This document shows, in pieces, positions 5,675-12,708 of a DNA stretch of 12,708 nt (its first letter is position 1; each line of letters starts with the position of its first letter). The position numbers and the translations under genes were made by a program. Source of the DNA: Candidatus Hermodarchaeota archaeon. Lineage in GTDB: Archaea > Asgardarchaeota > Hermodarchaeia > Hermodarchaeales > Hermodarchaeaceae. The notes beneath the pieces were generated by a model. The model had not been told where the DNA came from, ran no database searches, and saw only the letters and a program-made list of their open reading frames with translations. Location: positions 1 to 12,708 of the forward strand of contig JAEOTB010000045.1 in NCBI GenBank assembly GCA_016840065.1. The letters are read 5' to 3'.

Positions 5675-5879
5675 ACACCACAGCTCACGGGTCGAGACTG
5701 AAGAAAAAACCTTACCATACAGGCACAGAAACCAACCAAATCACGATAAACCCGAATCAGAAACCAAAATGATACACTTTTTTGGTTACAAGGCTCAGGA
5801 TTCTCGAGCGTTTTGCCCTTCTATTACATCAGTAAGTACTCTAGCAAAACCAAAGTGCGTTGACACCAGACAGGCTAGG

Positions 5880-6638
5880 TTAGCTGAAACGAGTTAGTGC
5901 TGCCTCTGCAGCTCCACGGACCTTGGCGTCACGGTCTTTTGTCGCGGCGGCCAGAGCTTCTATGGCACTGGTGTCTCCAATTTCTCCGAGTGCCACGGCA
6001 GCGACCCAGCGCACTGCAGCTTCCTTATCCTCTAAAGCCTTAATCAGAGGTACAACAGCCTTTATGGATCTTAGCTTGCCGAGGGCGATTATGGAGTTCC
6101 TGCGGACCTCCATTTCTGGATCAAATAGCAAGGTGAGTAAGGTGTCTATTGCCAGGGGATCCCGTAAGCGTCCAAGGTTCTGGGCGGATTTCATCCGGAC
6201 TCGCCAATCCTTGCTGGAAGCCCCGTAAATGCATAGCTCCACGGCGGTCTTTCCTGTAATCTTCACGAGGGCCTTGTCTGCTTGGTCTTGTACAAACGGG
6301 CTTTCATCTGCTTGTGCCTGGAGCAGGACTTCAACGGCCCTGTTGTCTCCGAGTTCTCCAAGGGTTTCTGCGGCTAGCTGTCGGACAAACCCTGATTTGT
6401 CTCCGATGACAACGAGACATAAAGGTTCGAGGGCTCTGATATCCTTGCTGGCTGCCAATATTTGCACAGCTCTCCTGCGAGCACTCAAGTCATCGCTTTC
6501 AAGGTCCTGAAAGAGCGATTCCAGTCTTTCCCTAGTCAAGGGCTGGCGACGTTCAGCTTCATCTTGTAGTGGCTGTCTTCGTTCCCTTTCTTCTTCTTTA
6601 TGTTTTTCAAGTTCTTCGCGCCGAAATTGGAAGGCCAT
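5880..6638 (-). CDS. HEAT/PBS-lyase repeat protein
   Basis: Repeated ~31-aa units (VRQLAAETLGELGD.RAVE.L; VRMKSAQNLGRLRD; VRRNSIIALGKL; VRWVAAVALGEIGD; VRGAAEAAL) follow a charged N-terminus. Confidence 0.92.
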   Translation of the reverse strand: MAFQFRREELEKHKEEERERRQPLQDEAERRQPLTRERLESLFQDLESDDLSARRRAVQILAASKDIRALEPLCLVVIGDKSGFVRQLAAETLGELGDNRAVEVLLQAQADESPFVQDQADKALVKITGKTAVELCIYGASSKDWRVRMKSAQNLGRLRDPLAIDTLLTLLFDPEMEVRRNSIIALGKLRSIKAVVPLIKALEDKEAAVRWVAAVALGEIGDTSAIEALAAATKDRDAKVRGAAEAALTRFS

Positions 6639-6821
6639 TATCTTTCATCTCGAACCGTTGTTTTTTATTTCGCCCTCAAGTTATCTTTTCTCGTTATCCT
6701 ATAATTATCTTTCTTTAAAGGGTGAAAAGTGTAATAACTGAGGGTCTTTCTGATCAAGAATACCTAACAAAGGAACGAATAAAGGGAAGAAGATTGGTTA
6801 TAGTTGGCAGGTAGGATTCAT

Positions 6822-7721
6822 TTGCCTTTTCCGATAACTCATCTAGCTTTGACGGTACTGACCTTTGATTTCCTTCGAGATGTCACGAAGAGTGTCAGAA
6901 TAAGGAACCGTTACTTAGCCTTGCTTGCCATTTGTGGTATAGTAGCAGATATCGATATTCTTCTGGTACCCTTTCTGGGATGGGATATCCACAAACTGTG
7001 GACACATAATCTACTGGCACTGGCAGCCTTTGCCTTGATAATGATTGTTTTGGCCAAGTTGGTGGGCAGAATCAGGGAGGGCTACATCCTGTTCGGTCTT
7101 GGCATCCTTGCTTATGCTGGGCATATTCTAACTGATTTCGTCATGCGTACGGTGCCCCTGTTCTTCCCCTTTGACTGGAACTACTACGGCTTTGCCCTTC
7201 TAGGCTCTCCGAAGGATTATCTCCAGTTCTCTACCTTCGACACGACCGTTATCGGTTTGTTCTTTCTCTACTACCTGTTCACAGGCTTCACGACCTTTCG
7301 TTACGCCTATAACTTCGCACCAGCTCGATTTTGGTATCGGAGCGGCTTCGAAGACGGAGTCTTCTCCCCAATCCGAGGACATTACGGCTTCATCCGAAAA
7401 AGAAAAGTGGCCTGGCGGATCAAGGTTCGCCTGATTCCTCCCACTGAGAGTGGCTCAAGGGCAGGCTTAGAACGGGCGATGGTGGAACTCTGGAATGCAG
7501 ATGACCCCGAGGAACTACTTTACGCATCAACGTTCTACGCGGGTATAGGAGAACTAGCACAGGACGCGGAACTCTTCATCCGTCTTGTCTCCATATCACC
7601 CGCAACCAAGTCAAGGAAACCCCTCATTACACTGGAACTGCTCCCAGCAAAATTCACAGGCCTCATGGAACTTACGCAGCGTCTGTCGGGGCGTAAGTAC
7701 TTCAAACTATATGCTGGCTAA
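6822..7721 (+). CDS. Membrane-bound metal-dependent hydrolase (YbcI/DUF457-like) with a soluble C-terminal extension
   Basis: Shows the family pattern H (PITH), DID, HKLWTHNL, HILTD and PLFFPF among hydrophobic helices. The likely start is TTG 6822 (MPFPITH); TTG 6804 is an alternative. Confidence 0.8.
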   Translation: MPFPITHLALTVLTFDFLRDVTKSVRIRNRYLALLAICGIVADIDILLVPFLGWDIHKLWTHNLLALAAFALIMIVLAKLVGRIREGYILFGLGILAYAGHILTDFVMRTVPLFFPFDWNYYGFALLGSPKDYLQFSTFDTTVIGLFFLYYLFTGFTTFRYAYNFAPARFWYRSGFEDGVFSPIRGHYGFIRKRKVAWRIKVRLIPPTESGSRAGLERAMVELWNADDPEELLYASTFYAGIGELAQDAELFIRLVSISPATKSRKPLITLELLPAKFTGLMELTQRLSGRKYFKLYAG

Positions 7722-7784
7722 AGAGTGAAACAGAAGCGGTTAGTTGAACCAGATACTAGAGATATGACTTCTCTTGCCTGAATC

Positions 7785-7798
7785 GAAATGCTTTATAA
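7785..7798 (+). promoter_or_regulatory. Putative archaeal BRE/TATA box upstream of the pseudogene
   Basis: GAAATGC-TTTATAA lies about 37 nt upstream of ATG 7835. Confidence 0.4.
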
Positions 7799-7834
7799 TC
7801 GAGATGATGTACTCCTTCTTTGGAGTGTCTGGTA

Positions 7835-8375
7835 ATGGTTTCTAGGGTAATCCCTGTACTCAAAGTTGGAGATCTCCTTTTTTCCCTTCAATTGGCTGTC
7901 TCCCCTCCCACCACACAACATCCCTCTATTTCTGAGTGGGACCTGAATGAAGGAGTTGTAACCAGCTATGATTACAAAACACCTGCACCCCGTGGCCAAG
8001 AGGTTTCTGCTCCCCATGTGCCAGAGATTGTGAGGGAACCGCTCCATAATCTCTCATACTGGGGTTATCTGCATTCGATAATAGAATGCAGTAGCGGTGG
8101 TTATGCTGCAACAGGTATGGGTGTCCAAAACTGGTATGACATACTACTAGCCCGTTTCGGCGAGCAAGGAAATGCGCTCTGGAATCGCACCTACGACATT
8201 GGAAGATGGGAATCCGGCAGGTATCTGGTTGAACTTCCAGATGGCGCTTCGTAATCCTCGGATCTAGCGACTTCCCTATGTAGCCGTTATCAGGTACTCT
8301 GGTGCGAATAGATGAAATGTGTAACCACCTCTTGAATCGAACAATCGGGTACAGAGACTCAGAAGATACTGGTGT
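7835..8375 (+). pseudogene. Decayed, truncated gene for a secreted beta-propeller-like repeat protein (DGG-aromatic...G..G...WNRT repeats)
   Basis: Repeat 1 reads IIECSSGGYAATG...DILLARFGEQGNALWNRTY. Repeat 2 starts LVELPDG, is broken by a 1-nt deletion at about 8246, and continues in another frame as FVILGSSDFPM*PLSGTLVRIDEMCNHLLNRTIG, with an in-frame TAG at 8281. Confidence 0.75.
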
Positions 8376-8453
8376 CTTCCTTTATTCAATAGCGAATCTC
8401 TATCATAATTATCTTATAGGATTGTGAGAAAGAGGTTAGAAGGAGTCATCAAC

Positions 8454-9089
8454 ATGACAGATGAAAAAGTACTGAAGCTGCCCACACCACGTCACAAGGG
8501 TCCTATGTCCCTCGAAGCCGCCATCAAAACCAGGAAGACTACTCGAGAACTTTCATCAAAGAGTCTGTCCCTATTCCAGGTTTCACAGCTCCTCTGGGCC
8601 CTCCAAGGTGTCACCCAGATTGAAGAGCCATCCGATGGCAAGTCCCTCCACTACAGGACTGCTCCTTCTTCAGGGCGTGCTTTCCCACTTGAGGTCTACA
8701 CACTCCTCTCTTCAGGTCTTTATCATTTCAAGCCCTTCGAACACGAGCTGTACCTTCTCAGCGGTGAGGACCTCCGGAAGCCACTTTCAGAAGCCGCTTA
8801 CGCAGACTTTAACCAAGAAGCTATCCAAACCTCTCCGCTAACCATTGTACTAACCGTTGATAACAAGGCAGCACTAAAGATGACCCCACTGCTAGAAGAT
8901 GTTATTCGCTATGTCCATCTAGAAGCGGGTCATGCCACGCAAAACCTGGCTCTACAAGCTGCTTCCCTTGGATTAGGACTGACTATAATCACCAGCTTCA
9001 AGATAGGAAAGGTCTATCCCGCCCTTAAACTCCCCCTAAAACATAGGCCAATCTATTTGCTCCCAATAGGTTATCCCCCAGAAGATTGA
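8454..9089 (+). CDS. SagB/ThcOx-family nitroreductase (FMN-dependent dehydrogenase)
   Basis: Contains LP.P.....MSLE.AI..R.T.R, LSL.QVSQLLWA.QG, RTAPSSG.AFPLEVY, EAGHATQNLALQA.SLGLG and PIYLLPIGYP. ATG 8454 has GGAG upstream. Confidence 0.92.
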   Translation: MTDEKVLKLPTPRHKGPMSLEAAIKTRKTTRELSSKSLSLFQVSQLLWALQGVTQIEEPSDGKSLHYRTAPSSGRAFPLEVYTLLSSGLYHFKPFEHELYLLSGEDLRKPLSEAAYADFNQEAIQTSPLTIVLTVDNKAALKMTPLLEDVIRYVHLEAGHATQNLALQAASLGLGLTIITSFKIGKVYPALKLPLKHRPIYLLPIGYPPED

Positions 9090-9118
9090 AGAGCGAATAT
9101 CGTTCCCTAGAATTGAGG

Positions 9119-10195
9119 TCAGCTTCCAGTCTGGGAACTAAAGAGGGTGCTGAACTGCATTAATACCTGCAAATCACCCTCGAACTTGAAATCACCTTGA
9201 ATAAAAGCTTGGGCCCCATCTATTCGCCCCTCACTTATTGCCACCCATGTTTTTGCGGGTCCCTCTAAAAGCAGGGTGGGTTTAGAAACAGACCCTTCTT
9301 TTCCTTGGCATTTCTGTTCGCGGATCGTGAAATACCAGTGGAGTGTTTCAGGACCTGAATGTAGTACCAGCTGAATGGTGGCATCCAAGCCCTGGGCTGC
9401 TGATGGGTCGAATGCTTGGGGTATCGCCCCCAACAAGGAACGTAGCTTTACAAAGGTTTGTTCGTCATCCTCAGATGGTGCAGCAGCTGTGGTTGAGGGC
9501 TGTGGTTCTTCCTCCACTTGGGGAATGGTTAGCCATCCCTGTTCCTTCCAGTATTCGTAGTCTGCTTTGAAGAACTTGCGATACTTATAGATGAGATCAC
9601 GGAAGAAAGCATGAGCCCGGCGCTGTTCACCGGTCTCTGGATATTCGTGTTGTTCGCGAATAGCTGTGACCAGTTGGCGTCCAAGGCGACGGGCATAAGC
9701 GACGACAACATCCTGTTGCTCAAGGAGGCCTGGAGCTGCAGCTATACCACAAACCGTTCCCACAGGTGCGACACCGAAGGCGACGAGTACTCCGAGAAGA
9801 TAGTCGGCAGTGGGAACATCCATGAAACCTGCAGAGACAGCCACGGATATACCATACTTACCATGAAAGCTAGGTCGATGCCCGAGGGGGAGGCAACGAT
9901 CAAGGAAGACTTTCATCTGACCAGTTACAGTGCCAAGATAGACTGGAGAGGCTAGAATTATGCCATCAGCCTCCCGCATTTTATCATGAATTGCTGATAC
10001 ATCATCTTTCTGGTTGCATGCGCCCTTTGTAAGGCAATTGGCGCAGCCAACGCAGTACTTGATTTTCTGTTTAGAAAGAACAATCGTTTCGATTTCCACA
10101 CCCTTTCCTGTGCAGCCAGCAAGCACTTCGGAGAGTACCCCATTGGTTGCCCCTCGAAGACCATGAGGGGACCCGAGAATCGCGAGTATCTTCAT
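9119..10195 (-). CDS. Iron-sulfur flavoprotein / NADPH-dependent FMN reductase (multimeric flavodoxin) fused to a C-terminal SCP2 sterol/lipid-binding domain
   Basis: The N-terminal domain has MKILAILGSP, CVGCANCLTKGAC (Cx2Cx2Cx5C) and ADGIILASPVY..VTGQMKVFLDR. An acidic Pro/Ala linker leads to SCP2 hallmarks: F.PSAAQGLDATIQL, W..I..G.IDGAQAFIQG.FKFEGDL..LM.F. Confidence 0.9.
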   Translation of the reverse strand: MKILAILGSPHGLRGATNGVLSEVLAGCTGKGVEIETIVLSKQKIKYCVGCANCLTKGACNQKDDVSAIHDKMREADGIILASPVYLGTVTGQMKVFLDRCLPLGHRPSFHGKYGISVAVSAGFMDVPTADYLLGVLVAFGVAPVGTVCGIAAAPGLLEQQDVVVAYARRLGRQLVTAIREQHEYPETGEQRRAHAFFRDLIYKYRKFFKADYEYWKEQGWLTIPQVEEEPQPSTTAAAPSEDDEQTFVKLRSLLGAIPQAFDPSAAQGLDATIQLVLHSGPETLHWYFTIREQKCQGKEGSVSKPTLLLEGPAKTWVAISEGRIDGAQAFIQGDFKFEGDLQVLMQFSTLFSSQTGS

Positions 10196-10241
10196 TAATC
10201 CATTTCAACTCCAAGTCAGCGTTGGAACGAGCAATCGTAGA

Positions 10242-10255
10242 TTATAAGGTTTTTT
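10242..10255 (-). promoter_or_regulatory. Putative archaeal BRE/TATA box for the flavoprotein-SCP2 gene
   Basis: The minus strand reads AAAAAACC-TTATAA about 47 nt upstream of the ATG at 10195. Confidence 0.55.
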
Positions 10256-10401
10256 GCTTCACCGAAGTGAGATTTAATCGCGTTGAGAATTTCTTTTGAT
10301 TTGGATACCCCCCCGATATCTAGAAATATGTAATAAGCGTCAGGAATATATACTAATCAGCTCTGCTGAGTGATAGCTTTAGAAATATTGGAAGGAACAT
10401 C

Positions 10402-10875
10402 ATGTCTGACAGGTTTCTAAACCAAAAGGTCCTCATATACGATCCCCGCAAATGCTCGGGATGCGAATACTGTGCAGTGGTCTGTTCCTTTCACCACTAC
10501 GGCAAAATTGACATCGCACAGTCCTTCGTACAGGTTTTTCGCGATGAATCAAAGCCTGTTGCTTTCATAAGCGCAATTTGTACCCACTGTGAGTACCCTC
10601 TATGCGAAGCAGCGTGTCCCACTGAACCCAAGGCAATCACAAAGGACCCTGAGACCGGACTCGTACTCCTTGACACACTAAGATGTATCGGGTGTAAATC
10701 CTGTAGATTCGCCTGCCCTATCTCAATCCCCCATTACGATGAGGACCGAGGGACCAGTAGCAAATGCGACTTTTGCGACGGAGATCCCCTGTGCGCAAAA
10801 TACTGCAGCACAGGTGCGATAAGGGTAGTTCCGAGAAAAGAGGCAAAGCAATTCATGGAGGAGATAACCAAATGA
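10402..10875 (+). CDS. 4x[4Fe-4S] ferredoxin-like electron-transfer subunit (CooF/HycB/DmsB-like)
   Basis: Has four Cys groups: CSGCEYCAVVC, CTHCEYPLCEAACP, CIGCKSCRFACP and CDFCDGDPLCAKYC. GGAAGG lies upstream of the ATG. Confidence 0.92.
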   Translation: MSDRFLNQKVLIYDPRKCSGCEYCAVVCSFHHYGKIDIAQSFVQVFRDESKPVAFISAICTHCEYPLCEAACPTEPKAITKDPETGLVLLDTLRCIGCKSCRFACPISIPHYDEDRGTSSKCDFCDGDPLCAKYCSTGAIRVVPRKEAKQFMEEITK

Positions 10876-11150
10876 GTGAAGATGAAGAGCGACTCTATCC
10901 TTGGAGAAAAGCCGTAAAAACCCTACCTGACACGGTTAAAATCCAGGTAGTCAATCTAATCAAAATGGGTCACGTTCCACAACTTTCCGGCTCCCGAGAG
11001 GACGCTAGGGAAAAGCTTGGGATAGACCGGGCTCCCCCTACCGCTTACAAGGATAAATCCGCACTTTTAGAACTTCAACAACTCATCAAAGAGTCAGGTC
11101 TTGATGAGAAGATAGCCTGGAATTGGAGGAAGGGAAAACCAGACTACTAA
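10872..11150 (+). CDS. 92-aa protein resembling the C-terminal (non-Fe-S) region of heterodisulfide reductase subunit C
   Basis: ATG 10872 overlaps the upstream stop (ATGA) and follows a GGAGGAG SD. The sequence KMGHVP......AREKLGIDRAPPTAYK...ALLELQQLIKESGLDEKIAWNW matches the recalled methanogen HdrC C-terminal pattern (GH.VP...R..LGL...PPT.....ALEEVQKII...GFD..I.Y.W). It has no cysteines and sits directly before hdrB. Confidence 0.7.
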   Translation: MSEDEERLYPWRKAVKTLPDTVKIQVVNLIKMGHVPQLSGSREDAREKLGIDRAPPTAYKDKSALLELQQLIKESGLDEKIAWNWRKGKPDY

Positions 11151-11162
11151 GGAGAGTTAGCC

Positions 11163-12029
11163 ATGGCAAAGACTTACGCGTTATTCCTTGGGTGCTTCAT
11201 TCCAGCTGTCCAGCCCTTCGCAGAGGTTTCACTCCGGAAGGTGGCCTCCAAACTAAGAATCAAACTCGAAGACATACAGGGTGCAACCTGTTGTCCAGTT
11301 CCTGAAATCATCCGTTTATCCGATTACCCCGCCTGGTGTTCAATTGCAGCCAGAAACCTCACCTTGGCTGAAGACATGAATAAGGATACTATGGTGGTCT
11401 GCACCGGATGCTGGGAAACCCTGTCAGAAGCCCACGAGGCCCTGCTCCATGACCCAGAACTCCTTGAAGAGGTCAACACCAAACTAGGGGCCGTAGACAG
11501 GGAATTCACTGGTAAAAGCAAGGTCGTCCACTTGCTTGAGGTCCTCGTTGAGAAAGTCGGTGTAGAGAAAATCCAGAAAGCTGTGAAGCGCCCCCTGACT
11601 GGGCTCAAAGTCGCGGTCCAGTATGGATGCAAGTACTACCGTACAGAAGATGAGAAATTCGTCAAACATTTCGATGAAGTCCTCAAAGCTATTGGTGCAA
11701 CCATCGTAGAGTATGGGGCTGAACGAGTCTGCTGTGGATACCCCAAGAGTCTCGACTCCCTTGATGAAGCCATCGAAGAGCGGACCAAATGGAAGTTTGA
11801 GAAAATCAAGGAATCCCAAGCCGATTGCCTAGTAACCTGCTGCCCTGGTTGCTATGATATGATGGAGAAATCCCAATTCCTACTCCGAAGACAGAAGCTC
11901 CGTTACAATATTTGCCAGGTCCATCTTGTCGAGTTGATTGCCCTAGCCTTCGGGTTTTCGCCCCAAGAAATCGGACTGGACACCCACCGCATAAAATGTG
12001 ATGCATTGATCCAGAAACTTAGTAGGTGA
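11163..12029 (+). CDS. hdrB: Heterodisulfide reductase subunit B family protein (two CCG domains)
   Basis: YALFLGC, ATCCP, AARNL.LAE, VCTGC..TL, KRPLTGLKVAVQYGC, VCCG, CPGC and LIALAFG give two Cx31-39CCx35-36CxxC-type motifs. Confidence 0.9.
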   Translation: MAKTYALFLGCFIPAVQPFAEVSLRKVASKLRIKLEDIQGATCCPVPEIIRLSDYPAWCSIAARNLTLAEDMNKDTMVVCTGCWETLSEAHEALLHDPELLEEVNTKLGAVDREFTGKSKVVHLLEVLVEKVGVEKIQKAVKRPLTGLKVAVQYGCKYYRTEDEKFVKHFDEVLKAIGATIVEYGAERVCCGYPKSLDSLDEAIEERTKWKFEKIKESQADCLVTCCPGCYDMMEKSQFLLRRQKLRYNICQVHLVELIALAFGFSPQEIGLDTHRIKCDALIQKLSR

Positions 12030-12035
12030 GAGAAG

Positions 12036-12467
12036 ATGACGTTAATGGACAAACTACGAGACAAGATGAAAGCGCTACTAAAAGACGACTATCTTGGTGA
12101 AACAAAAGACAAATACAGCCGCTACTACATACGCATCCCCTCCAATCGAAACCGTGACATCACCCAACTATTATCAGACGAACTAGACGGAAGGCTAGTC
12201 GGGATTTCAGCTACTGATGAGGGGACAAGCGGTTTTGACGTGGTCTACCATTTTGATTTCACACACCAAGAGCGCAAACTCAACATCGTAGTCAAGATGA
12301 GGATTCCTCGAAACAAACCCGAGATTGCCTCGGTGGCAGATATCGCCTGGTCAGTCAACTGGGCAGAGCGGGAACTAATGGACTTGATGGGTATCAAGTT
12401 CCCCGGACACCCCGATCCGCGAAAGCTCTTCCTACCCTATGCGTGGCCAGAAGAGGAGGTGGCCTAA
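12036..12467 (+). CDS. NuoC/MbhK/EchD-like (complex I 30 kDa) subunit of a group 4 hydrogenase/complex I-like complex
   Basis: Shows L.GISATD.G..FDVVYHF, SVADI.WSVNWAERELMDLMGIKFPGHPDPRKLFLP..WP. An AGGTGA SD overlaps the hdrB stop. Confidence 0.9.
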   Translation: MTLMDKLRDKMKALLKDDYLGETKDKYSRYYIRIPSNRNRDITQLLSDELDGRLVGISATDEGTSGFDVVYHFDFTHQERKLNIVVKMRIPRNKPEIASVADIAWSVNWAERELMDLMGIKFPGHPDPRKLFLPYAWPEEEVA

Positions 12468-12708
12468 ATGGGCAAACCAAAGGAAAAAGTAAAGACAATC
12501 CCACTCAAAGTCGATAAAGGCACAGGATCAGATTTCATTGTCCCCATCGGACCCTTTCATCCAGCCCTCCTTGAAGGCGAATTCTTCAAACTCAAAGTTG
12601 ATGGTGAGCGCGTCCTTGAGGCTGATGTTAAGCTGGGTTACAACTACCGAGGTATTATGAAGCTCGCTGAGAGTCGTACCTACTGGCAGGATATCTACCT
12701 CGTCGAAA
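12468..12708 (+). CDS. N-terminus of a group 4 [NiFe]-hydrogenase large subunit / NuoD-like subunit (3'-truncated by the window edge; missing from the ORF track)
   Basis: Manual translation gives MGKPKEKVKTIPLKVDKGTGSDFIVPIGPFHPALLEGEFFKLKVDGERVLEADVKLGYNYRGIMKLAESRTYWQDIYLVE..., with the family motifs GP.HP.L.E, DGE.V and GY..RG..K. The ATG directly follows the upstream TAA, with a GGAGGTG SD at 12455-12461. Confidence 0.9.
   Translation, partial: MGKPKEKVKTIPLKVDKGTGSDFIVPIGPFHPALLEGEFFKLKVDGERVLEADVKLGYNYRGIMKLAESRTYWQDIYLVE

Follow-up and report, generated by a model that had tools for sequence, protein, structure and literature searches.

A ten-gene operon for a putative HdrB-linked, membrane-bound [NiFe] hydrogenase in a Hermodarchaeota archaeon

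The genome of a Hermodarchaeota (Asgard) archaeon contains a ten-gene operon, recovered on two contigs, that in our estimate encodes, with a probability of about three in four, a membrane-bound [NiFe] hydrogenase bearing an HdrB-type disulfide-reducing head, which would pass electrons from H2 to a disulfide and export ions. The gene content, sequence motifs and conservation of this operon, the co-phylogeny of its components and a gene fusion in its relatives are direct observations. The operon is real, and the kind of system it encodes is not new, as it belongs with the Ehd, Ehe, Drh and Ehg systems (Borrel et al. 2019; Kohtz et al. 2022) and with complexes described from Hermodarchaeia (Appler 2024); the earlier note on this DNA, which had named Ehd as a possible precedent, was right in this respect. 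In hydrogenases of this type, ion pumping would be driven directly by the chemistry of hydrogen and of thiols and disulfides, and they have been discussed as a bridge between the methanogen-type and respiratory-type modes of energy conservation. That they occur in Asgard archaea for which neither MCR nor coenzyme M synthesis was found sharpens the old question of which disulfide is used by the Hdr systems of non-methanogens. The locus provides a clean, conserved example in which HdrC is cut down to an adaptor tail that is fused to NuoC in relatives, an arrangement that could inform expression constructs and structural work.

The analysed stretch of DNA (hereafter the window; 12,708 nt) is an entire contig (C20) and holds only the start of the operon, in the form of five tightly packed, co-oriented genes on the plus strand at its 3' end. 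In order, these encode a polyferredoxin of 157 aa (Fd; 10402..10875), with a Fer4_11 domain and four [4Fe-4S] motifs; a mini-HdrC of 92 aa (10872..11150), recognized by its PDB match to the C-terminal tail of HdrC; an HdrB of 288 aa (11163..12029); a NuoC-like protein of 143 aa that belongs to the peripheral arm of the hydrogenase (12036..12467; Pfam Complex1_30kDa, E 4e-25); and the N-terminus of the [NiFe] large subunit (12468..12708), the gene for which runs past the contig end. The Fd and mini-HdrC genes overlap by 4 nt (ATGA), and the subsequent spacers measure 12 nt (mini-HdrC/HdrB), 6 nt (HdrB/NuoC) and 0 nt (NuoC/large subunit). An SD-like purine-rich motif lies upstream of each of the five starts, namely GGAAGG (10390-10395) for Fd, GGAGGAG (10858) for mini-HdrC, AGGAG (11150) for HdrB, GGTGA (12024) for NuoC and GAGGAGGTG (12452) for the large subunit. 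Reading of the sequence thus bears out the layout given in the earlier note, and the Pfam and PDB matches agree with the identities that it had assigned to the five genes. As it had also claimed, the upstream gene is divergent (an FMN_red-SCP2 fusion on the minus strand, 9119-10195), and Pfam annotation of the contig places neither hdrA nor mvhD upstream of the operon. The intergenic region that separates the divergent gene from the operon (10196..10401, plus strand) probably includes the operon promoter, a placement that is based on its A/T-rich composition.

The end of the window overlaps another contig of the genome, C99, by exactly 127 nt, and the reading frame of the large subunit, of which the 80-aa fragment on the window contig has by itself no Pfam match, runs on in C99 as a Complex1_49kDa/NiFeSe_Hases protein. 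On the minus strand of C99 (locus L004), the remainder of the large subunit (13775-14890) is followed by genes for a NuoL-like subunit (Proton_antipo_M; ~11883-13781), a NuoH-like subunit (NADHdh; 10879-11892), a NuoI-like subunit (10305-10874), a 6-TM MbhG/NuoK-like subunit of 202 aa (9709-10317) and a NuoB-like subunit (9249-9704), which brings the operon to ten genes. The 6-TM protein has no Pfam match and was assigned by PDB sequence search; the NuoL-, NuoH-, NuoI- and NuoB-like subunits are Pfam assignments. The subunits that had been expected downstream are therefore in place, and the genes of the C99 part of the operon include neither hdrA nor mvh. Both Ni-Fe motifs of the large subunit are intact (L1, RICGICSHHH; L2, DPCMCC), and a HycI-type protease and HypD are encoded in the same genome. 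The join between C20 and C99 consists in the assembly overlap plus synteny, the latter being backed by a relative with 92% identity and by over ten loci with the same synteny. A chimeric join was considered and rejected, given the exact continuation of the frame and the same gene order in more than ten relatives.

The HdrB protein has two complete CCG motifs (Pfam CCG x2), which would bind two noncubane [4Fe-4S] clusters, and it aligns over its full length with HdrB of M. wolfeii (5odc_B, E 4e-56), all ten cluster cysteines being matched. Past the second CC motif, the sequence departs from this pattern in a loop that reads CCGYPKS here and CCGAGGG in 5odc_B. The CCG domain is common to several non-Hdr enzymes (LutA, GlcF and the SdhE/TfrB type), and, together with the aberrant loop, this could be taken to mean that the protein is not a disulfide reductase at all, but acts on another substrate or serves as a mere electron-transfer subunit. 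We regard this as highly improbable, given that the best full-length matches are genuine HdrB chains (E 1e-51 to 4e-56) and that a dedicated HdrC tail has been kept. The loop by itself might signal a new substrate, but in the structural model it falls within the predicted Fd interface (residues 185-199), a position that would explain its divergence with no change of substrate.

The partner through which HdrB would receive electrons appears to be an HdrC that has been split in two. The polyferredoxin (Pfam Fer4_11, E 8e-17) is of the HycB/AOR-FeS-subunit type, with PDB matches to 8c0z_C, 6x6u_B and HycB (7z0s_B), and its 16 cysteines, arranged in four cluster motifs, are all invariant among 17 relatives. 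The mini-HdrC is free of cysteine and has no Pfam match; in the PDB sequence search it corresponds to the final ~60 residues of HdrC (8rvu_c, residues 123-183, E 7e-8; 5odc_C, E 4e-6). It is a standalone gene of 85-96 aa in 14 relatives, and three relatives with a rearranged cluster carry the HdrC tail as a fusion to the C-terminus of NuoC, immediately upstream of hdrB (42, 40 and 26 bits). This fusion ties HdrB to the NuoC/D arm of the hydrogenase. We propose that the Fe-S domain of HdrC has been swapped for the polyferredoxin, which would wire electrons to HdrB, and that the C-terminal tail has been retained as a 92-aa structural adaptor that would hold HdrB and contact NuoC.

Structure prediction supports the view that the polyferredoxin docks on HdrB together with the HdrC tail. 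The prediction with Fd as the partner of these two chains scored 0.80, the best control reaching 0.21, and part of that score may stem from a resemblance to HdrBC and polyferredoxin complexes of solved structure; contact agreement between runs was at least 90% and the pLDDT of the partner at least 86. In the benchmark, 58 of the 80 solved complexes and 2 of the 110 mismatched pairs attain that mark, counts that apply only roughly to a prediction for which custom alignments and three chains (Fd, HdrB and HdrC tail) were submitted. The view of HdrB as a docked head, put forward in the earlier note, gains from this model and, for the NuoC/D arm, from the fusion of the tail to NuoC.

The ten genes are found in identical order in seven sister-genus Hermodarchaeota genomes, one 'Heimdallarchaeota' MAG (G397), one JGI metagenome contig and some Methanomethylicia, so that the conservation of gene order for which a check had been proposed extends across these lineages. 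In the Methanomethylicia MAGs that have this order the large subunit is 60% and HdrB 51% identical to the proteins described here, and the commonest arrangement found in Methanomethylicia is Fd-tail-HdrB-NuoB-x-NuoL-fused NuoCD-NuoH-NuoI. The species named here as carriers of the cluster are a lower bound, drawn from a contig scan by two peptide patterns in which the reference loci of Culexarchaeia and Methanocella were not among the loci recovered by name. In the large-subunit tree, all HdrB-linked forms make up one clade (91/95), separate from HdrB-less relatives; in the HdrB tree, the hydrogenase-linked proteins form a starred clade (100/99) with the same internal order, apart from canonical HdrB, both trees having been computed without the sequences of the published Ehd, Ehe and Drh reference lists. 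The large subunit and HdrB of the present operon group with the HdrB-linked hydrogenases of Methanomethylicia and Bathyarchaeia. Because the internal order of the HdrB clade matches that of the large-subunit tree, the phylogenies point to a long co-inheritance of HdrB and hydrogenase.

These data also bear on the possibility that the product of the first three genes is a soluble ferredoxin:disulfide reductase, co-transcribed with an Ech/Mbh-like hydrogenase and unattached to it. The support for attachment comes from gene data and a predicted structure, and lineages differ in gene order, as a free-standing enzyme would allow. However, HdrB is embedded among the hydrogenase genes, at NuoC/large-subunit or polyferredoxin/NuoB positions, its tree is congruent with that of the large subunit, and its HdrC tail can be part of NuoC, all of which makes a separate soluble enzyme a very unlikely explanation of the operon.

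The closest published counterpart, from Methanomethylicia/Verstraetearchaeota, is Ehd ('energy-converting hydrogenase D'), a name that Kohtz et al. 2022 (PMC9723716, Fig. 4 and Supplementary File 5) trace to Borrel et al. 2019; its kin are Ehe (Culexarchaeia), Ehd-like (Bathyarchaeia and others), Drh (Methanocellales) and Ehg (Nezhaarchaeia). For Ehd, H2:disulfide oxidoreduction coupled to ion translocation has been proposed (PMC9723716), and in the literature, including Kohtz et al. 2022, the functions of Ehd, Ehe and Ehg are genome-based proposals. The present operon resembles Ehd in encoding together a group 4 [NiFe] hydrogenase, membrane and antiporter-like subunits, HdrB and an HdrC-like protein. 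Specifically, the large subunit carries RxCGxCxxxH and DPCxxC, the HdrB with its two complete CCG motifs is encoded inside the hydrogenase operon, an HdrC-like partner stands beside it in split form (the Cys-free tail plus the four-cluster ferredoxin), and the membrane subunits (NuoL-, NuoH- and 6-TM MbhG/NuoK-like) include an antiporter-like one. The order of the genes is unlike that of the nine listed for Ehd (A-C, hdrC, hdrB, [NiFe], G-I; PMC9723716), and the host differs in belonging to the Asgard archaea and in that searches for MCR and ComA found neither. From Hermodarchaeia themselves, MBH-like complexes with a peripheral heterodisulfide reductase are reported in a preprint (Appler 2024, 10.1101/2024.07.04.601786), and the Asgard group 4l/4q MBH-like hydrogenases in it are matched by the present operon, at the level of the text description, in lineage and in the combination of an Mbh-like hydrogenase with an Hdr module. 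A split HdrC, a HycB-like ferredoxin and a fusion of the tail to NuoC are absent from the passages searched in that preprint.

With the soluble HdrABC-MvhAGD complex of methanogens (5ODC, 8RVU) the operon shares a full-length HdrB with ten cluster cysteines and the HdrC C-terminal tail, but it lacks HdrA, MvhD and the flavin-based bifurcation module, and a four-cluster Fer4_11 protein takes the place of the HdrC Fe-S domain; HdrA and MvhD are encoded elsewhere in the genome (contigs C78, C27 and C126). The closest solved relatives of its hydrogenase parts are chains of the E. coli FHL (7Z0S; HycE, 7z0s_E) and of the Pyrococcus furiosus Mbh (6CFW; 6cfw_L, 6cfw_H and 6cfw_G), the large subunit being related to MbhL/HycE, the NuoL-like subunit to MbhH and the 6-TM protein to MbhG. 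As in FHL, a HycB-type polyferredoxin would connect the NuoI-like subunit with an additional catalytic head, but that head is HdrB and not FdhF; no molybdopterin protein is encoded in the operon, and the HycB-like ferredoxin is the sole part shared with the head side of this group 4a enzyme. Unlike Mbh (group 4d), the operon has no Mrp-type small subunits MbhA-C and no MbhF, and its three membrane genes, homologous to MbhH, MbhM and MbhG, include a single antiporter-like subunit.

To our knowledge, no HdrB-linked membrane hydrogenase has been purified to date. From the features described above we infer that the subunits form a single complex and pump ions, and likewise which way the reaction runs and what the substrate is. 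The large subunit (NuoD-like) would cleave H2 at its Ni-Fe site, and the electrons would travel from the NuoB cluster through the pair of clusters in NuoI and the four in the HycB-like polyferredoxin to HdrB, whose two noncubane clusters would convert a disulfide to two thiols. The energy freed would drive ion export via the NuoH-like, the 6-TM MbhG/NuoK-like and the single NuoL/MbhH-like antiporter subunit. Since the closest solved relatives, Mbh and FHL, evolve H2, the same complex might instead do so physiologically, in the manner of Mbh/Ech, with the HdrB head as the point of electron entry; this would proceed by ion-gradient-driven thiol oxidation or with reduced ferredoxin entering via the polyferredoxin, and, combined with a cytoplasmic MvhADG-HdrABC, would make a thiol/disulfide loop. 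The genome has an Mvh/Hdr cluster (C78) and HdrA-MvhD fusions (C27, C126), and the disulfide-generating MCR was not found in it, as such a loop would have it. Nevertheless, thiol oxidation to H2 is strongly endergonic by textbook potentials (about -140 mV for CoM-S-S-CoB versus -414 mV for H2), the literature prefers H2 oxidation, and nothing in the sequence fixes the direction; we consider H2 evolution unlikely and retain H2-dependent disulfide reduction as the preferred reading.

Searches for McrA and ComA found neither protein in the host genome or its family (19/19 genomes, 72-91% complete), in keeping with the earlier suggestion of a non-methanogenic host. Because neither MCR nor ComA was found, CoM-S-S-CoB is probably missing from the Hermodarchaeota host and is probably not the substrate there. 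Our tentative proposal, which we hold to be possible rather than likely, is that the disulfide on which the HdrB head works is not CoM-S-S-CoB and that the complex serves as a hydrogen-linked thiol/disulfide respiratory pump for an Asgard redox carrier, in which case the NuoC-HdrC-tail fusion would show the way in which the head is mounted. Genes for a group-3b (sulfhydrogenase-type) hydrogenase and for a CoA-disulfide-reductase/Nox-like flavoprotein flank the operon in the sister genus, and in a Bathyarchaeota relative it adjoins a GcvH gene; as leads, these neighbours point to a CoA- or sulfane-derived disulfide, or a protein-bound one of the lipoyl type.

The five genes that the earlier note had read as an operon lie where it placed them, with a 4-nt overlap followed by gaps of 12, 6 and 0 nt, and a purine-rich, Shine-Dalgarno-like motif precedes each start, as it had claimed. 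The first (10402–10875, + strand; Fer4_11) encodes a polyferredoxin whose 16 cysteines form four cluster motifs, and the third (11163–12029, +) an HdrB of full length in which both CCG motifs and the ten cluster cysteines are all present. The product of the second (10872–11150, +), with zero cysteines and no Pfam match, matches, in a PDB sequence search, the last ~60 residues of the HdrC chains of solved heterodisulfide reductases (8rvu_c, E 7e-8; 5odc_C, E 4e-6), so that the proposed label "mini-HdrC" is fair; we refer to it as the HdrC tail. HdrB is followed on the same strand by NuoC (identified by Pfam) and by a hydrogenase large-subunit gene interrupted by the contig end. Neither hdrA nor mvhD precedes the operon, in line with the first reading, since the gene directly upstream is a divergent fusion of an FMN-reductase and an SCP2 sterol-carrier domain (Pfam FMN_red-SCP2; 9119–10195, −). 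Together with an adjoining nitroreductase (8424–9089, +) and, farther upstream, MsrA (1031–1645), this gene forms a small redox or repair neighbourhood.

The window comprises all of contig C20, and the operon continues on another contig of the assembly, C99, the end of which, when reverse-complemented, is identical to the last 127 nt of the window, an overlap typical of assembly graphs. The reading frame of the large subunit runs on through the join to give a 409-aa protein that contains both Ni-Fe ligand motifs (RICGICSHHH and DPCMCC) and has HycE of Escherichia coli formate hydrogenlyase (7z0s_E) and MbhL of Pyrococcus furiosus Mbh (6cfw_L) as its nearest solved relatives. It is followed, in order, by a NuoL-like antiporter subunit (nearest solved relative, MbhH), with a 4-nt overlap between its likely start and the large-subunit stop, a NuoH-like subunit, a 2x[4Fe-4S] NuoI-like subunit, a 202-aa membrane protein with a profile match to MbhG (MrpC/NuoK-like; 6cfw_G) and a NuoB-like small subunit; the downstream search proposed in the earlier note thus recovers NuoB-, NuoI-, NuoH- and antiporter-like genes. 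A hydropathy count puts the membrane segments of the NuoL-like, NuoH-like and 202-aa subunits at no fewer than 14, 7 and 6, respectively, and a 60-residue non-membrane stretch ahead of the last helix of the NuoL-like subunit may be a lateral helix. Beyond the NuoB-like gene lie an AsnC-type regulator, maf and an ABC ATPase; genes for a HycI-type protease and HypD are located elsewhere in the assembly.

The operon is real and the first reading of it was right; both its kind and its presence in this lineage have been described before. Kohtz et al. 2022 (PMC9723716) describe "modular HdrB-interacting [NiFe] hydrogenases", crediting Ehd to Borrel et al. 2019, and assign Ehd to Methanomethylicia, Ehe and Ehd-like complexes to Culexarchaeia and Bathyarchaeia, Drh to Methanocellales and Ehg to Nezhaarchaeia; later literature adds Ehd-like complexes in additional Thermoproteota. 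Appler et al. 2024 (10.1101/2024.07.04.601786) report MBH-like group 4l/4q complexes bearing a peripheral heterodisulfide reductase domain in Hermodarchaeia and other deep-branching Asgard archaea, and the original Hermodarchaeota paper lists group 4 hydrogenases and does not note the Hdr link. The possible Ehd precedent raised in the earlier note holds for the kind of complex. Ehd as published has nine genes arranged unlike these ten, a rearrangement inside a known family.

The synteny survey of archaeal MAGs suggested by the earlier reading recovered the ten-gene order in 7 of 15 sister-genus genomes, in a MAG labelled Heimdallarchaeota, in an unassigned JGI contig and in several Methanomethylicia MAGs (identity of 60% for the large subunit and 51% for HdrB). 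The prevailing Methanomethylicia order is polyferredoxin-tail-HdrB-NuoB-x-NuoL-fused NuoCD-NuoH-NuoI; two Asgard families (f2, f4) and one genome of the Methanomethylicia class (G447) have polyferredoxin-NuoL-NuoC-HdrB-large subunit-NuoH-NuoI...NuoB, and one Bathyarchaeota MAG and two Asgard genomes (family f5) have still other orders. Large-subunit relatives from bacteria and Alkanophaga (47–53% identity) have no accompanying HdrB. In the large-subunit tree every HdrB-linked form falls into one clade (91/95), within which the ten-gene type is a starred subclade. The hydrogenase-linked sequences of an HdrB tree form a starred clade, separate from canonical HdrBs including the paralogues of this genome, and its internal order is that of the large-subunit tree, an agreement which indicates that the two modules have long been inherited together. 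Two sister-genus copies carry in-frame stops. In L044 (G094, Hermodarchaeota FT1_005; 5768–6217, −), the NuoB-like gene has one TGA, at the Cys codon of GCV[ST]KHSK, a position conserved across the nine other ten-gene-type clusters; it is either a candidate selenocysteine codon or a point error. A TAG ~40 codons into NuoC of L041 (G096, Hermodarchaeota YT1_028; 11528–11686, −) may be a sequencing error or mark an inactivated copy.

Docking was explored by complex prediction with the polyferredoxin as partner of HdrB plus the tail. The model scored 0.80, against 0.21 for the best control (contact agreement between runs at least 90%, partner pLDDT at least 86), which supports docking of the polyferredoxin on HdrB plus the tail. 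Among solved complexes 58 of 80 reach that mark, as do 2 of 110 mismatched pairs, a calibration that is rough here given custom alignments and three chains, and likeness to solved HdrBC may account for part of the pass. In the predicted interface the ferredoxin contributes its first cluster motif (residues 17–38 and 130–138) and HdrB its residues 155–160 and 185–199, the loop following the second CC motif, which reads CCGYPKS here as opposed to CCGAGGG in canonical HdrB. Because this loop lies in the predicted interface, its change can be explained by a new electron donor rather than a new substrate. Attachment to the hydrogenase arm, inferred at the outset, draws on evidence independent of modelling: in three rearranged relatives "NuoC" is 221–223 aa long because it carries the HdrC tail at its C-terminus (profile scores 42, 40 and 26 bits), directly upstream of hdrB (L049, 12552–13217; L050, 4899–5570; L078, 10888–11553; all −). 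Such fusions argue for the tail as a bridge from NuoC to HdrB, which would mount HdrB on the arm. The split HdrC, the HycB-type ferredoxin in place of the HdrC Fe-S domain and the NuoC-tail fusion are the details that add value, and the consulted passages of published accounts contain no mention of them.

The best-supported function is that proposed in publications on Ehd: H2 would be oxidized at the hydrogenase, electrons would reach HdrB by way of NuoB, NuoI and the polyferredoxin, and HdrB would reduce a disulfide while ions are exported, although the same complex may operate in reverse. For H2:disulfide electron transfer, CoM-S-S-CoB is an unlikely substrate, as searches of this genome and of 19 family genomes (72–91% complete) recovered neither McrA nor ComA, consistent with the suggested non-methanogen. 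The genome further encodes an Mvh/Hdr cluster (contig C78) and two HdrA-MvhD fusions, so some thiol/disulfide couple probably cycles between soluble and membrane-bound Hdr systems. Sister-genus genomes have a four-gene group-3b-type [NiFe] hydrogenase ahead of the operon and a CoADR/Nox-like pyridine-nucleotide disulfide oxidoreductase after it (L006, 5152–9178 and 17049–18425; likewise L040–L046 and L070). An orthologue of this CoA-disulfide-reductase/Nox-like flavoprotein is present here (C22, 4281–5648; 66% identity); the assembly, which is 84% complete, yielded no 3b large subunit. In a Bathyarchaeota locus (L071, 2833–5298), genes for GcvH, a CCG protein and a LUD/Fer4 protein diverge from the HdrB-hydrogenase cluster, recalling the GcvH link reported for Ehe. 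These flanking genes are substrate leads only.

Close relatives of the large subunit (73–92% identity) come from Candidatus Hermodarchaeota, Hermodarchaeum yapensis and Promethearchaeota MAGs. Within the assembly itself (5% contamination), contig C70 (536–5485) is collinear with window positions 5880–11500, sharing a HEAT-repeat gene, YdjM, the nitroreductase, FMN_red-SCP2, the polyferredoxin, the HdrC tail and the start of HdrB at 85–93% protein identity. It stops within hdrB, at the same break point as a contig of a same-genus genome (G108:C66), and probably represents a second, co-binned sister strain, not a duplication. Contig C4 (about 51600–52650) encodes another, distantly related group 4/NuoD-like large subunit (414-aa frame), which sits on a long branch outside the clade of HdrB-linked forms and so is probably a component of some other complex I-like system.
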